From: an uncultured bacterium
GTDB taxonomy: Bacteria; Patescibacteriota; Minisyncoccia; Phycocordibacterales; GWA1-40-21
NCBI GenBank assembly: GCA_963716205.1
Contig: OY970290.1
Coordinates: forward strand, 30,411 to 94,410
Direction of reading: 5' to 3'
Length of the DNA stretch: 64,000 nucleotides
The position numbers and the translations under genes are program-made. Positions 38,481 through 46,838 of the stretch are shown one piece after another (positions within the stretch are counted from its first letter, which is position 1; the number at the start of each line of letters is the position of its first letter). The notes beneath the pieces are model-generated. The model was not told where the DNA came from, ran no database searches, and saw only the letters and a list, made by a program, of their open reading frames with translations.

Positions 38481-39323
38481 ATGAAAATTTTAGATGGAAA
38501 AAAAGTTCGCGACATACTCGCGGAGAAAATAAAAAAAGAATTAAAAAAACTCAAGGCAAAGCCAACACTTGCTATTGTGCAAGTCGGCAATAATCCCGCT
38601 TCGGCAGTTTATATACAGCAGAAAAAACTTTTCGGAGAAAAACTCGGCTGTAACGTCCGACACATTCATTTTTGGGAAAAAACATCTGAATCCGCATTGT
38701 TGTTAAAGATAAAAAAATTGAATGCCGACAAAAAAGTGAATGGTATCATCGTCCAGCTTCCGCTTCCAAATCATATTGATGAAATGAAAATAATAGAGCA
38801 TATTTCTCCCGGAAAAGATGTTGATGGACTGAATTCTAAAAATCTACACTTTCTTTTGGAAAATATTCCCGGCGGTTTTACTCCCGCAACGACGAAAGGC
38901 ATTGTATCGCTTTTGGATTTTTACAAAATTCTGATTGAAGGGAAAAAAGTCACTGTTGTCGGCAGATCGCTTCTTGTCGGCAAGCCGACCGCGCTTGCAT
39001 TCTTAAATCGAAACGCGACGGTAACCGTCTGCCACAGCAAGACGAAAGATATCAAAAATGAAATCAAGCGGGCAGATATCATCGTTTCAGCAATCGGAAA
39101 ACCAAAATTCATCAAGAAAAATTTTGTGAAATCAGGACAAATAATTATCGATGTCGGCATTACGAAGACCGGCGAGAAATTCTTTGGCGACGTTGATTTC
39201 AAGCCGGTTTCAAAAATTGTAAGGGCGATAACGCCTGTTCCGGGAGGTGTGGGCCCGATGACTGTCGTTTCTCTTTTTGAGAATATTTTGCTATCATACA
39301 AGAGACAGAAAGGTCTCAGATAA
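38481..39323 (+). CDS. folD: Bifunctional methylenetetrahydrofolate dehydrogenase/cyclohydrolase
   Basis: Full-length collinear similarity to FolD (ILDGKK....I.....L......P.LAIVQVG.NPAS..Y.....K), with a Rossmann GRS..VGKP motif. Confidence 0.9.
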   Translation: MKILDGKKVRDILAEKIKKELKKLKAKPTLAIVQVGNNPASAVYIQQKKLFGEKLGCNVRHIHFWEKTSESALLLKIKKLNADKKVNGIIVQLPLPNHIDEMKIIEHISPGKDVDGLNSKNLHFLLENIPGGFTPATTKGIVSLLDFYKILIEGKKVTVVGRSLLVGKPTALAFLNRNATVTVCHSKTKDIKNEIKRADIIVSAIGKPKFIKKNFVKSGQIIIDVGITKTGEKFFGDVDFKPVSKIVRAITPVPGGVGPMTVVSLFENILLSYKRQKGLR

Positions 39324-41442: not shown

Positions 41443-41465
41443 AATAAATAAATTTAAAATAAAAA

Positions 41466-41499
41466 AAGGGCTTTTCCGTAAAACGGAAAAGCCCTTTTG
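41466..41499. terminator. Bidirectional terminator (aaagggcttttccg-taaaa-cggaaaagccctttt)
   Basis: Perfect 12-bp stem between rplK (+) and the thyX-like gene (-). Confidence 0.7.
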
Positions 41500-41509
41500 A
41501 AAACTAAAT

Positions 41510-42889
41510 TCACACTTTCCTTTCTTTGAAATCAAAAGTTTCGATGACGACTCCGCAATACCTTTGACCTTCTCCGCAGCCACCATCTTTTACACACGGT
41601 GGAGCGAAAACCCAATCCAACTGCGGGTGCAACTTGAGGACCTGTTCTCGCATTTGGGTACCCAAGTGATAAATTTCCTCTTGAGCAAGCCAGCAGCAAC
41701 GCTTCGCCATTTCATGCGCGATAGCGTTCAGATCGCCTTTCTTGCGATACTTGACCATTGCCCCATACGGAGCAAGAACAGTCGCAAGAGTTTTTGGCAA
41801 TCCCAAAGAAAGATCTGCCCACAGGGTCAAAACCGATTTGAGTTGCTTACCTAGACCCATCTCTGCAAGAAGTGGAGGTAAATATGCGAAACCAGTAAAT
41901 TCCGGTTCGCTTCTCCTGATCGTGCGATGACGTTGGTCTTGGCCCATAGTAGCAACAGAAAGAATAATTTCCGCCGTGAAAGTCGTATCGGAATTGTCCA
42001 TGTACTTCGGTTTGAAGTGAAGCACATCGATTGGATGCATGTCATCGGGATGAGGAATCACGATGTTATCCCCAAGAACGACTCTCTCGAGGCGATATTC
42101 CGGTTTCGTCCGACAATCACCGATCTCAATGACTGGTAATCCTTTCGGGAAATAATCTTCCCCGAAGCGCAATTTCGGATCGAACATGTAAGAAATTTCC
42201 GGGAACTTTTCCAAGATCAAATCTCGCATGACATCCGTAATCGCACGCATGGTCGGATTTGGAGCACTCTTCCAGAGCGAAAACAAACCCGAAAGATTGA
42301 CGGTAAAATCAAAACCGGTCGGAAAAATGATGGGAATGAATGCCCTCATTTGTTCTTGAGCAATCTTTCCGCAGTTTGCGTCGATCGATTTTTCCGGAAG
42401 TTTCGGCCTTTCAATCGTCATATGCTTTTTGGAAAAAGCCGTGGCTGCTTCCAAATTGTTTTTGTAGTGGCCGATTGCAACGACAAGATAATTCATAATA
42501 TCGGCAATTTGCTTCTCGGTTGTTTCCGGCCAAAACTCCATGACGTAACGCTTGAGTTCATCAAAATTCGGATTGGCGAACATCGCGGAACAAAATCTTC
42601 CGCTGCGCTGGTCCGAATTGTAGAACGGACTCGCAAGATGCATTCCGAAAGTGATGTCACCAACGCAAATACCCTCGATGTTGAAAGTGGCTGACCAATG
42701 CTGAAGCGTGGTGTGGTGACCAACATTGAAAAGCCGACCTTTGATATCCATCGACTTCCCCCATTCCGGAGGTTCAGCCTGATAACATTCTTGTGCTGCA
42801 TGCGAAGCCGAATCTGTCGGTTTCGCACTGGTAAGTGTCAACAGTTCAACACTGATACTGCCTCCATTCGTAAACTTTTTCGAATTCAT
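41510..42889 (-). CDS. thyX: Flavin-dependent thymidylate synthase ThyX-like, tandem-duplicated (two ThyX-like halves in one 459-aa chain)
   Basis: The first half has ThyX motifs GHHTTLQH and SDQRSGRF, but MHL stands where RHR is expected. The second half has RHRTIRRSE and a ThyX-like C-terminus (AHEMAKRCCWLAQEEI). Genomic context with dcd, tmk and dut supports the call. Confidence 0.6.
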   Translation of the reverse strand: MNSKKFTNGGSISVELLTLTSAKPTDSASHAAQECYQAEPPEWGKSMDIKGRLFNVGHHTTLQHWSATFNIEGICVGDITFGMHLASPFYNSDQRSGRFCSAMFANPNFDELKRYVMEFWPETTEKQIADIMNYLVVAIGHYKNNLEAATAFSKKHMTIERPKLPEKSIDANCGKIAQEQMRAFIPIIFPTGFDFTVNLSGLFSLWKSAPNPTMRAITDVMRDLILEKFPEISYMFDPKLRFGEDYFPKGLPVIEIGDCRTKPEYRLERVVLGDNIVIPHPDDMHPIDVLHFKPKYMDNSDTTFTAEIILSVATMGQDQRHRTIRRSEPEFTGFAYLPPLLAEMGLGKQLKSVLTLWADLSLGLPKTLATVLAPYGAMVKYRKKGDLNAIAHEMAKRCCWLAQEEIYHLGTQMREQVLKLHPQLDWVFAPPCVKDGGCGEGQRYCGVVIETFDFKERKV

Positions 42890-43003
42890 GCTGTCCTACC
42901 TTTCCGTATACTTTTTATGTGAATTTAAAATAACTGCTGATTCCTTTAAAAATCTACTTCATTTAAAAATAAAGTCAAATCCTTTATTTATTTGCAAATA
43001 AAA

Positions 43004-43041
43004 AAGTCGATGCAGCATACAGCGTGTTACATCGACTTTTT
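43004..43041. terminator. Bidirectional terminator (gtcgatg-...-catcgac flanked by A and T runs)
   Basis: Seen in the sequence. Confidence 0.55.
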
Positions 43042-43042
43042 G

Positions 43043-43714
43043 TTATTTCTGAATTTCCCGATCCTTGTGAAGTTTCGGAAGCATCATGGAAGGATCCCAG
43101 GATTTCATAATGGTTTTTAGATCTGTCGAGCTCTGATATTTCCCGAGCTTTGCATAATCTGCACCCAAAATTGGTCCGGTCTCCTCAAAAATGATCTGCG
43201 CAATGCGTCTTCCAACAACGAGCGGAATCGTATAAGATTTCGAACCGTTCGTAATTTCCATGGTCCAGCGATTGATGAAGCCGACATCACCCCAGCCCGC
43301 ACACTTACAGACTGTGATAAAACTTCTTCCCATCGATGAACGCGCTTGCATGCTAGTCGTGATGTGTCCTCGCCCACCAATAAATTCTTCGGTGTGTGCG
43401 AGAATCATTTCACCTGGCTCGAGCATAATGACCAGATCATTTGGATTGATACCCTCATGATCGAGTCCCATCTCCCCGAATCTGCAACCTGCCCGTTCCG
43501 CCTGAAGTGCTCTTTTGCCCCAAACCTGCTTGACGTGCTCCTCATTGTATATGTTGTAAAAGCGCTGGTTGTACGCGGGATTGCGCGCCCGATAAAAGTA
43601 CCTGCCCAGTGTTACATCATAACTTGAAGTTGCGAGATTGGCTCTATTGAAAGGTTCAATAACAATATACCCTTTCTTTTTTTCCTGCAGAATGCGCCTA
43701 TCCGACAAAGCCAT
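43043..43714 (-). CDS. dcd: dCTP deaminase family protein
   Basis: ILQEKKKGYIVIEPFN....TSSYDVTLG is the Dcd N-terminal signature; dUTPase-like fold. Start set at the internal ATG (MALSDRRILQE). Confidence 0.8.
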   Translation of the reverse strand: MALSDRRILQEKKKGYIVIEPFNRANLATSSYDVTLGRYFYRARNPAYNQRFYNIYNEEHVKQVWGKRALQAERAGCRFGEMGLDHEGINPNDLVIMLEPGEMILAHTEEFIGGRGHITTSMQARSSMGRSFITVCKCAGWGDVGFINRWTMEITNGSKSYTIPLVVGRRIAQIIFEETGPILGADYAKLGKYQSSTDLKTIMKSWDPSMMLPKLHKDREIQK

Positions 43715-43840: not shown

Positions 43841-44395
43841 ATGGCAAAAATAATTTTTGGACTTGTCGGACCGCTCGCAGGCGGCAAAGGCGAGATAAAA
43901 AAATACATTGAAGAAAAATATCACGGAAAAGATTGCCGTTTTTCCACGCCACTCCGCAATGTTTTAAATCAGCTCGATATTACGACAAGCAGAGAAAATT
44001 TGCAAAAAGTCTCGACGGTCCTGCGCCAGACATTTGGCGAGAATTTGCTTTCGAAGACAATTGCAAAAGAAGCCGAAGGATTCGATGCTGATATCGTGGT
44101 CGTTGATGGCGTAAGACGAGTGACTGATGTCGATTATTTGCTTTCCAAGGAAAATTTTGTTCTTGTTGCTGTCGATGCCGATCCGAAAATTCGATTTGAT
44201 CGGCTCGTATCACGAAACGAAAATGTTGGTGATGATAAAAAGACTTTTGAGCAATTTTTGGAAGATCAAAATAAAGAGTCGGATCGGCAGATTCCCGAAG
44301 TGATGAAATCTGCAAAAGAAATTATTAACAATGACGGAAGTTTGGAAGATTTATATAAGCAAGTTGATTCTTTGGTGAAAAAATATTTGAAATAA
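43841..44395 (+). CDS. T4-type deoxynucleoside monophosphate kinase-like P-loop kinase
   Basis: P-loop GLVGPLAGGKGE. The C-terminus IINNDGSLEDLYKQV matches the ITNDGSLEELFSKI end of phage T4 dNMP kinase (gp1). Encoded between dcd and tmk. Confidence 0.55.
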   Translation: MAKIIFGLVGPLAGGKGEIKKYIEEKYHGKDCRFSTPLRNVLNQLDITTSRENLQKVSTVLRQTFGENLLSKTIAKEAEGFDADIVVVDGVRRVTDVDYLLSKENFVLVAVDADPKIRFDRLVSRNENVGDDKKTFEQFLEDQNKESDRQIPEVMKSAKEIINNDGSLEDLYKQVDSLVKKYLK

Positions 44396-44471: not shown

Positions 44472-45116
44472 ATGATGGAACACAAAGGTCGTTTTATTGC
44501 TGTCTCGGGAGGCGAAGGCGCAGGCAAGACCAGCCAGATCGAGCATGCCAAAATCGAATTTGGCGATCGAATAGTATGCACGCGTGAGCCGGGCGGCACG
44601 CCGTCCGCAGAAAAAATCCGGGAATTTTTCTTGTCTGAAGAAATACAGAATTCAGATGTGCTGACAAGGATGCTCTTGATGTTTGCCATGCGGCGTCTGC
44701 ATGCGGAGGAAAAGATTCGCGGTGCGCTCAAAGGTGGTAAGCTTGTCATCTGCGATCGCAGCGATTCGGACACTTTTGCATATCAGATCCGGGCTGAAGA
44801 CGGAAAACAGTACGAGAAACTTTTCTGGCAACTGCGCGAAAGCGTTTATGACGATATCAAGCCGGATCTCTATGTGCATTTTGACATTGAGCCGTCCGTC
44901 GGTATCTTTCGTAAGCTCGATCAAAGCAGTTCGGAACAGAATACGTACGATCAAAAGCCACTCGGATTTCACGACAAGGTTCATGAAGGACTTAAAGAAT
45001 TTATGGGCCTCAAAGATATCTTGAGTACTCGTATCGATGCGAGCCAAGGCAAGGAGGAAGTCTGGCATGCATTTCGAGAAATTATTGAAGGTCAGTTGCG
45101 CTTTCTCGGCCACTGA
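44472..45116 (+). CDS. tmk: Thymidylate kinase
   Basis: FIAVSGGEGAGKTSQ P-loop and the DRSDSDTFAYQ (DRH/Y..S..AYQ) motif. Confidence 0.87.
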   Translation: MMEHKGRFIAVSGGEGAGKTSQIEHAKIEFGDRIVCTREPGGTPSAEKIREFFLSEEIQNSDVLTRMLLMFAMRRLHAEEKIRGALKGGKLVICDRSDSDTFAYQIRAEDGKQYEKLFWQLRESVYDDIKPDLYVHFDIEPSVGIFRKLDQSSSEQNTYDQKPLGFHDKVHEGLKEFMGLKDILSTRIDASQGKEEVWHAFREIIEGQLRFLGH

Positions 45117-45186: not shown

Positions 45187-45609
45187 ATGCTTCTCAAAAT
45201 CAAAAAACTCCATGCAGATGCAAAGATGCCAAGTTATGCACATCATGACGATGCGGGATTTGATCTCTATGCGGTAGAAAATACCACGGTCAAAGTCGGC
45301 GAGCGAGTTGCGATGCCGACGGGGATTGCGATGGAGATACCAGAAGGATTCGTCGGACTCGTCTGGGACAAAAGCGGTATTGCGGTCAAACACGGAATCA
45401 ATACGATTGCCGGCGTGGTGGATTCGAGCTATCGGGGCGAAGTAGTTGTCGCTCTCGTGAATAATGGTGAGAATGATTACACTTTTGAAAAAGGGCACAA
45501 AGTCGCGCAGATGATCGTCCAGAAGAAAGAAACTGTTCAATTTGAAGAAGCGAAAGAACTTTCAGATACTCTGCGTGGCGCGGATGGCTTTGGCAGCACG
45601 GGGAAATAA
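45187..45609 (+). CDS. dut: dUTP diphosphatase
   Basis: dUTPase motifs AGFDLYA, GLVWDKSGIA, and the C-terminal RGADGFGSTG (motif V). Confidence 0.9.
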   Translation: MLLKIKKLHADAKMPSYAHHDDAGFDLYAVENTTVKVGERVAMPTGIAMEIPEGFVGLVWDKSGIAVKHGINTIAGVVDSSYRGEVVVALVNNGENDYTFEKGHKVAQMIVQKKETVQFEEAKELSDTLRGADGFGSTGK

Positions 45610-45626
45610 TTATAATAATAAAAATC

Positions 45627-46838
45627 ATGTCAGAAAATAAATTTCCAAAAGGATTTTTCTGGGGCGCGTCGACTGCAAGCCATCAAGTCGAGGGAAACAC
45701 GCACAATCAATGGAGCGAATGGGAAAAATCCCCAGCTCGTTTGGCGGAGCTCGAAAAAGACGGACGTATTGCGAAATACGGCAAGGAAAATTATATTTCA
45801 GGACGTGCGGCGGATCATTACAATCGTTTTGAAGAAGATTTCAAATTGGCAAAAGAACTTGGTCACAATGCGACGCGCATCTCTATTGAATGGTCGCGTA
45901 TCGAACCTCGCGAAGGAGAATTTGATGTGAAAGAAATCGAGCACTATCGCCGCGTCATCGCTTCGATACGGCAAAATGGAATGGAACCTTTTGTCACGCT
46001 GTGGCATTGGACATCGCCGATCTGGTTTTCAGAGATTGGCGGATTTGAGCGCAGAGAAAATGCAAAATATTTTTCAAGATATGCCGAAAAAATGGCAAAG
46101 GAACTTTCCGATGTGAAATTCTGGCTGACATTGAACGAACCGGAAGTTGTCACGAGCCACAGCTATCTGAATGGCATTTGGCCGCCGCAAAAGAAAAATT
46201 TGTTTTTGACAATTTCGGTATATCACAATCTTATCTATTCTCATCAAGTGGCATACTGCTCTATGAAATCAGTAAACAAAAATCTACAAATTAGTGTCGC
46301 TAAACACAATATTTATTATGAAGCGTACGAAGGCAGATGGTGGAATATTCTTGTGAAAAAATTCATGGATTGGACCGTCAATTTTTATTTTCTCAACCGT
46401 ATTAGGAATTATCAGGATTTCATCGGACTTAATCATTATTTTCATAATCGTATCAGGAATTTCAAGCTGAATCAGAATGAAAATAAAAAGGTGAGTGACA
46501 TGGGCTGGGAATTGTATCCAGAAGCTATCTATCATGCGCTTATGGATTTAAAAAAATACAAAATGCCAATTTATATTACCGAGAACGGCTTGGCAGATGC
46601 CAAAGATTTCCAAAGAGCGTGGTTCATTGAGGAAAGTTTAAAAAATGTGCATCGGGCGATTGCCGATGGAGCGGATGTGCGAGGATATTTGCATTGGTCG
46701 CTCATGGATAATTTTGAATGGGACAAAGGATTCTGGCCGCGTTTCGGACTAATCGAGATAGATTACAAAACTTTGGAACGAAAAATACGACCAAGCGCGC
46801 TTGTCTACAAAAAGATACTTGAAAATAATGGATTTTAA
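45627..46838 (+). CDS. Glycoside hydrolase family 1 beta-glucosidase (compact, 403 aa)
   Basis: N-terminal FFWGASTASHQVEG, acid/base TLNEP, and nucleophile YITENG. Confidence 0.85.
   Translation: MSENKFPKGFFWGASTASHQVEGNTHNQWSEWEKSPARLAELEKDGRIAKYGKENYISGRAADHYNRFEEDFKLAKELGHNATRISIEWSRIEPREGEFDVKEIEHYRRVIASIRQNGMEPFVTLWHWTSPIWFSEIGGFERRENAKYFSRYAEKMAKELSDVKFWLTLNEPEVVTSHSYLNGIWPPQKKNLFLTISVYHNLIYSHQVAYCSMKSVNKNLQISVAKHNIYYEAYEGRWWNILVKKFMDWTVNFYFLNRIRNYQDFIGLNHYFHNRIRNFKLNQNENKKVSDMGWELYPEAIYHALMDLKKYKMPIYITENGLADAKDFQRAWFIEESLKNVHRAIADGADVRGYLHWSLMDNFEWDKGFWPRFGLIEIDYKTLERKIRPSALVYKKILENNGF

Follow-up and report, generated by a model that had tools for sequence, protein, structure and literature searches.

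How can a flavin-dependent thymidylate synthase work when its polypeptide is about twice the length of an ordinary ThyX and neither half of it holds all the expected catalytic residues? This question is raised by a two-domain thyX gene in a 64,000-nucleotide stretch of contig OY970290.1 from an uncultured bacterium of the Patescibacteria; this whole stretch is called the window below. The gene is located at 41510..42889 on the minus strand, which is the strand of all thyX features given here, and in the list of open reading frames (ORFs) it starts with ATG and encodes 459 amino acids (aa) followed by a stop codon. Its product is quite probably a working thymidylate synthase of the flavin-dependent type, in which two highly divergent ThyX domains form a pseudo-dimer within one chain, and it would convert deoxyuridine monophosphate (dUMP) to thymidine monophosphate (dTMP) with flavin adenine dinucleotide (FAD) and methylene-tetrahydrofolate. 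The active-site residues appear to be sorted between the two halves according to the subunit that contributes them in ordinary ThyX.

Both halves are ThyX domains. Against the Pfam family Thy1 (PF02511; 191 profile positions, gathering score 24.8 bits), the whole 459-aa protein reaches 60.3 bits in two matched stretches. When each half was scanned alone, half 1 (aa 1-247) scored 35.2 bits (E 1.4e-8) over profile positions 7-190 and half 2 (aa 248-459) scored 29.2 bits (E 9.5e-7) over positions 58-191, both above the gathering score, and thus the Thy1 match is not confined to one half. The N-terminal domain (aa 1-240; 42170..42889) is also aligned with the ThyX of Thermotoga maritima at an hhalign probability of 91.6%. 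It is connected by an inter-domain linker (aa 241-262; 42104..42169), placed from the secondary structure of the predicted model, with the C-terminal domain (aa 263-428; 41606..42103), and a Cys-rich C-terminal tail follows (aa 429-459; 41513..41605).

The AlphaFold2 model of the full-length protein is confident throughout, with a predicted local distance difference test score (pLDDT) of 92.3 and a predicted template modelling score of 0.90; the pLDDT of the C-terminal tail is 76-79, and half 2 modelled alone (aa 251-459) reaches 90.2. In Foldseek searches against PDB, all the matches listed for both models were ThyX, with template modelling (TM) scores of 0.57-0.69 normalised on the target for the full-length model, and a best E of 8e-9 and a TM score of about 0.6 over about 200 columns for half 2. 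The structural alignments to solved ThyX show 15-21% identity, and no two-domain ThyX was matched among the solved structures in PDB by profile search or Foldseek. Since each half matches Thy1 and the ThyX fold, the two halves are homologous. Half 1 and half 2 showed no significant similarity when their profiles were compared with each other (probability 4.4%), and therefore the duplication must be old, beyond direct detection. The tandem duplication of ThyX proposed in the initial annotation is thus borne out, with Thy1 in each half and only ThyX among the matches listed for both models.

The two halves do not carry the same residues. Residues were mapped by alignment to T. maritima ThyX (Tm numbering). 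The block GHHTTLQH (aa 57-64; 42698..42721) of half 1 keeps H58, T60 and H64 as the counterparts of Tm His53, Thr55 and His59, whereas half 2 has no recognisable block for these residues, and its sequence leaves the first 57 positions of the Thy1 profile unmatched. Between Tm R74 and Y91, where the half-2 column was assigned by anchoring on the Arg-His-Arg (RHR) motif and not by a computed alignment, half 1 keeps the dUMP loop, S96-G97-R98-F99 of SDQRSGRF (aa 92-99; 42593..42616) corresponding to Tm Ser88-Gly89-Arg90-Tyr91, but has MHL (aa 83-85; 42635..42643) where the canonical RHR is expected, G82-M83-H84 replacing Tm R78-H79-R80 and I79 replacing Tm Q75; half 2 has lost the loop but keeps QDQRHR (aa 317-322; 41924..41941), in which Q317 equals Tm Gln75 and R320-H321-R322 equal Tm Arg78-His79-Arg80; and Tm R74 is replaced in both, by D78 and G316. 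Further downstream, E179 and R182 in AQEQMRAF (aa 177-184; 42338..42361) of half 1 correspond to Tm Glu144 and Arg147, which are replaced by T367 and T370 in half 2. Tm R165 is replaced in both halves (S200 and N388). The counterpart of Tm Arg174 is R397 of half 2, within AHEMAKRCCWLAQEEI (aa 391-406; 41672..41719) and followed by AQEEI (AQWEI in Tm), while half 1 has no Arg there. As a result, the RHRxxS...SxRY motif is incomplete within either domain and complete only with both combined. The motifs GHHTTLQH, MHL, SDQRSGRF, RHRTIRRSE (aa 320-328) and AHEMAKRCCWLAQEEI were all found where the initial annotation had placed them.

The pattern becomes clearer when compared with published structures. 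In ThyX of Mycobacterium tuberculosis (Mtb), Helicobacter pylori and Paramecium bursaria chlorella virus 1 (PBCV-1), the residues of one site are spread over three subunits (PMC6514825, PMC3498832). Subunit A gives the RHR motif (Mtb 95-97), the residue equivalent to Gln75 and Arg199 (Tm R174) (PMC6514825 section 3.1); subunit C gives Ser105, Arg107, Tyr108 and the Gln103 backbone (Tm S88, R90, Y91 and E86), plus Arg87; subunit B gives Ser71 and Arg190 (Tm T55 and R165) (PMC6514825). Similarly, in an inhibitor structure of the PBCV-1 enzyme, one monomer contributes Gln75 and Arg182, which is strictly conserved and corresponds to Tm R174, and the other contributes Ser88 and Gln89 (PMC3498832 section 4.4). 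By these subunit assignments and the residue mapping, half 2 holds only the A-role set and half 1 only the B- and C-role sets. The complementary motif loss noticed in the initial annotation is thereby supported in a refined form: the FAD-, dUMP- and folate-side residues are divided by subunit role, and not simply as RHR against SGR.

The division was followed through an alignment of 340 full-length homologues, which consist of 198 members of a short form and 142 of a long form (median lengths of 455 and 531 aa). The split of roles holds in all 340 relatives examined. The invariant positions of half 1 are C35, H58, H84, S96, R98, E179 and R182, with T60 nearly so; those of half 2 and the tail are Q317, Q319, R320, R322, R397, C399, C432, C438, C445 and E440, with H321 (339/340) and H392 nearly so. 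Accordingly, the uracil-activating Arg (R397), the dUMP-phosphate Arg (R182) and the folate/flavin-side His (H58) are all present and invariant. Exactly one RHR is found in 335 of the 340 homologues, at a relative position of about 0.69, in half 2. The two-domain signature can be written as one RHR in domain 2, an SxR(Y/F) loop and a GHxT block in domain 1, RxCxxAQEEI, and a C...CxEGxR(Y/F)CG tail, and its key positions are invariant in both the 198 short and the 142 long members. Positions that differ between the two branches are D78, G82, R95, G97, R161, R326 and Y375.

A simple assembly would explain this division. Ordinary ThyX has four identical subunits and four active sites, each built from residues of three subunits (PMC6514825). 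In the two-domain protein, the C-domain would supply the subunit A residues, namely Gln317, the uracil-polarising Arg397 and the RHR, by which dUMP and the FAD phosphates are held. The N-domain would supply the subunit C residues, namely the Ser96-Gly97-Arg98-Phe99 dUMP loop, Glu179 and Arg182, as well as His58 and Thr60 for the B role. Two chains would then pair as a pseudo-222 tetramer, with the true two-fold axis relating both C-domains. Because each site of a 222 tetramer omits one subunit, one C-domain and both N-domains could complete one site, and each C-domain would thus nucleate one. At the two reciprocal sites the A role would fall to an N-domain, and these sites would be without the required residues and dead. 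We infer a catalytically active dimer with two live and two dead sites.

Several observations weigh against the reading of this protein as a thymidylate synthase with divided roles. The profile of the family matches the solved ThyX structures only marginally (best E 0.0065), and a phmmer search of the protein against PDB chains gave no ThyX match. The NCBIfam thyX equivalog TIGR02170, which was built on single-domain ThyX, gives 56.2 bits, under its cut-off of 87.9. The local hhalign alignment of half 2 to T. maritima ThyX, in which R397 falls on R174, is weak (E 0.57); this assignment is made because of the R-x4-AQxEI signature and the Pfam match. Moreover, two residues of the Mtb site, Arg190 of subunit B (Tm R165) and Arg87 of subunit C, have no conserved counterpart in either half.

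The genes around thyX were examined next. A dCTP (deoxycytidine triphosphate) deaminase-like gene (dcd; 43043..43714, minus strand; Pfam DCD, 107.7 bits) lies upstream of thyX, and a divergent kinase-tmk-dut cluster on the plus strand follows, which begins with a putative nucleotide kinase of the AAA_17 family (43841..44395) and continues with thymidylate kinase (tmk; 44472..45116; Pfam 98.2 bits) and dUTPase (dut; 45187..45609; Pfam 111.5 bits). FolD, a methylene-tetrahydrofolate dehydrogenase/cyclohydrolase and a route of one-carbon donor supply, is encoded 2 kb from thyX (38481..39323, plus strand; Pfam 198.7 and 124.3 bits). Similar neighbours are found in relatives. For example, the locus of the 71%-identical relative (L001) contains dCMP (deoxycytidine monophosphate) deaminase, kinase, tmk and dut beside thyX; L003 has a DCD gene beside thyX; L005 has the order mazG-tmk-thyX; and L008 has glyA-dCMP deaminase-kinase-tmk-thyX-dut, all co-directional. 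The same AAA_17 kinase gene adjoins thyX in L001 and L008. Of 80 genome loci, 38 have one or more dTMP-pathway genes at a distance of up to 6 kb, which is a lower bound as the count comes from single-query tblastn. When the window was searched by tblastn with ThyA and single-domain ThyX, nothing was found. These gene neighbours argue for real dTMP synthesis.

Other explanations of the protein have to be weighed against this evidence. It might be a neofunctionalised ThyX paralogue that acts on another pyrimidine nucleotide or in other C5 chemistry, such as hydroxymethylation or methylation of uridine monophosphate (UMP) or dCMP, in a cell that obtains dTMP from elsewhere. ThyX homologues with other substrates exist, and the strong divergence, the score under the TIGR02170 cut-off, the lack of a phmmer match to ThyX in PDB, the extra invariant four-cysteine motif and the invariant His84 in a degenerate motif would fit such a protein. 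We nevertheless consider it unlikely, as no variation is seen in the residues that touch dUMP at its uracil, deoxyribose and phosphate, linkage to dUMP-producing deaminases, dut, tmk, glyA and folD is repeated, and no second thymidylate synthase was seen in the 64-kb window. Thymidylate synthesis is the best reading because the dUMP-contacting residues are retained and the gene context is that of the dTMP pathway, and the divergent paralogue of different activity, offered as an alternative in the initial annotation, is disfavoured on the same grounds.

All four pseudo-sites could also be active, provided that the RHR-less site of half 1 uses His84, Arg95, Arg161, Lys175 and Arg326 instead. His84 is indeed invariant at the position of the canonical Arg80, and several further basic residues are conserved in the short family. 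This arrangement seems very unlikely, since a reciprocal site would be without counterparts of R78, R80, R174 and Q75 in half 1 and of S88, R90, Y91 and R147 in half 2, and conservation of the candidate substitutes R95, R161 and R326 does not extend to the long form. Finally, the two-domain frame might be an artefact, either a sequencing-error fusion of adjacent thyX genes or a decaying pseudogene. Some database entries do hold half 1 alone or half 2 alone; both half-only entries examined, however, are artefacts themselves (one from a contig end, the other from a frameshift). The AlphaFold2 model is confident throughout, and frame, motifs and length are common to 340 full-length homologues from many assemblies. 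An artefact is thus hardly conceivable, and it is already refuted by the homologue set.

A natural split-gene version of the enzyme was also considered, as the databases contain stand-alone half-2 proteins, about 236 aa long, whose first residue corresponds to M221. The two that were examined are gene-calling artefacts: P0171 (L004) is located at the end of a 1-kb contig, and P0188 (L005, 2460-2545) is preceded by a 190-aa half-1 ORF with a frameshift between them. These two candidates of about 236 aa therefore give no evidence of a real heterotetramer version.

The short and long forms also share four cysteines. C399, C432, C438 and C445 are invariant in 340 of 340 homologues. C399 stands two residues after R397 (codon 41693-41695), and the other three lie within PPCx5CxEGxRYCG of the tail (codons 41552-41602). 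T. maritima ThyX has no counterpart of this tail and no Cys at the position of C399. The four cysteines, in an arrangement often seen in metal sites, probably form such a site, of either zinc or an iron-sulfur cluster. It is conceivable, though rather unlikely, that they bind a redox-active iron-sulfur cluster near FAD, in which case the reductant would be ferredoxin or another low-potential donor and not directly NADPH (reduced nicotinamide adenine dinucleotide phosphate); the evidence equally allows a structural zinc site. We know of no iron-sulfur or ferredoxin cofactor and electron route for thymidylate synthases, and a literature search for links between ThyX and iron-sulfur or zinc found nothing relevant.

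Concerning the family, the closest homologue, which comes from a metagenome-assembled genome (MAG) of Patescibacteria and is named FAD-dependent thymidylate synthase, aligns over 100% of the length with 71% identity. Altogether 616 proteins match at E <= 0.001; the best 120 of them are about 440-490 aa and, where they have a name, are called FAD-dependent thymidylate synthase/ThyX or hypothetical protein. An exhaustive search of 1.84 billion cluster representatives gave 377 matches at E <= 0.001 and also brought out another tier, proteins about 485-560 aa long that contain two matched stretches. P0250, one of this second tier, was used as query and retrieved at least 4,950 clusters with lengths of about 520-540 aa from Nitrospirota, Planctomycetota, Saccharimonadales, Bacteroidota and others. 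Among archaea, the long form is present in Woesearchaeota and Thermoplasmatota. These long-form proteins carry the same motifs and cysteine tail as the short form. The window protein, at 459 aa, is outside the long-form length and belongs to the short branch, which is without the long inter-domain segment: the roughly 75 residues missing from the short form fall mostly around aa 235-290.

In species-representative genomes, the short form is found mainly in Patescibacteria. Outside Patescibacteria, MAGs with the labels Rickettsiales, Alphaproteobacteria, proteobacterium and Candidatus Enterousia (L062, L064, L067, L072, L074, L078-L084 and L086-L088) contain it as well, at 38-44% identity, which could reflect horizontal transfer or mislabelled bins. 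In one long-form protein, P0263 (840 aa), the half-1 motif HPYYN|SEQASQRY, inside the dUMP-binding loop, is interrupted by an intein of 309 aa (Pfam PF14890), and the intein-free P0272 (531 aa) is in the same 90% cluster. Inteins tend to occupy functionally critical sites.

The two-domain architecture is not new, and what we describe is a member of a very large, database-annotated and little-studied family, whose long and short forms both already bear the name of thymidylate synthase. Valas and Bourne (2009; PMC3224940) stated that a Chloroflexi ThyX 'contains a domain duplication' and 'has not been characterized', and our literature search turned up no other mention of a ThyX with a duplication. 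The 'neat case' of subfunctionalised duplication that the initial annotation saw here is supported as subfunctionalisation, while the architecture is neither rare nor novel.

The sequences next to thyX give some indication of its expression. A hairpin (AAAAAGTCGATG...CATCGACTTTTT) with a T run is located between the dcd stop and thyX (43003-43043, minus strand), and a promoter-like site upstream of thyX (TTGACT, 16 nt spacer, TAGATT; 42951..42978, minus strand) was found by consensus scan only, in which promoter-like sites were no more numerous than in shuffled sequence. The hairpin together with the promoter-like site suggests that thyX is transcribed on its own. Just 3' of the thyX stop there is a terminator-like hairpin with a 16-bp stem and a T run (41464..41498, minus strand).

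Some further features of the window were noted. The listed dcd ORF starts at GTG 43924 and would overlap the divergent AAA_17 kinase gene, and its Pfam match begins only at aa 73; the true start is likely the ATG at 43714. A glycoside hydrolase family 1 gene (45627-46838) lies between dut and a SWIB-domain gene and looks like a local insertion, because L001, the closest relative, has dut directly next to SWIB. Neither a tRNA gene (ARAGORN) nor a member of any Rfam family at gathering score was found in scans of the 64-kb window. The G+C content is 0.32-0.35 in the first 4 kb of the window and about 0.42 elsewhere.

ThyX is a target for antibacterial drugs. Study of its active site is difficult, as the site is formed by three identical subunits. 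A natural single-chain form in which the residues appear sorted by subunit role offers a direct view of which of them act in trans. It would also be a clean example of subfunctionalisation following internal duplication, and the number of sites per domain is predicted to be half of the usual. The two-domain family comprises at least 4,950 long-form clusters and 616 short-form proteins, with no solved structure among the PDB matches. For Patescibacteria, thyX together with the genes around it points to retention of de novo dTMP synthesis in spite of genome reduction. A characterised member of the family would already exist, and the novelty would be lower, if the ThyX of Chlamydia trachomatis, a protein of about 529 aa, has two domains, as it may. 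The C. trachomatis enzyme is biochemically active and was used in NADPH-oxidase assays (PMC3498832).

Compared with the canonical single-domain ThyX (flavin-dependent thymidylate synthase, FDTS) of T. maritima (TM0449; PDB 1O26), M. tuberculosis (2AF6, 3GWC) and PBCV-1 (4FZB), the window protein is alike in the fold of both halves, the Thy1 domain and the pathway context, and also in the set of FAD-, dUMP- and folate-side residues when both halves are taken together. It differs in having two domains per chain, with the catalytic residues divided between them and not present in every subunit; in its extra Cys-rich tail; and in the lack of counterparts of Tm R165 and Mtb Arg87. In place of the canonical four-site tetramer, a two-site dimer is predicted.

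The archaeal tRNA-splicing endonuclease follows the same evolutionary logic with an unrelated fold and different chemistry, and thus serves as an analogy only. In that enzyme, a homotetramer with shared sites gave way to a dimer of fused repeats with divided roles. PMC3239211 distinguishes a homotetramer (alpha4), a tandem-repeat homodimer (alpha'2) and a heterotetramer ((alpha-beta)2).

A further comparison is with the long two-domain ThyX. The window protein shares with it the domain order, GHHTTxQH, the invariant His in place of RHR, SxRY, QDQRHR, RxCxxAQEEI and the three-Cys tail, and differs in belonging to the shorter branch, short and long forms being about 23-28% identical over half 2. 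The short and long two-domain forms share a single evolutionary origin.

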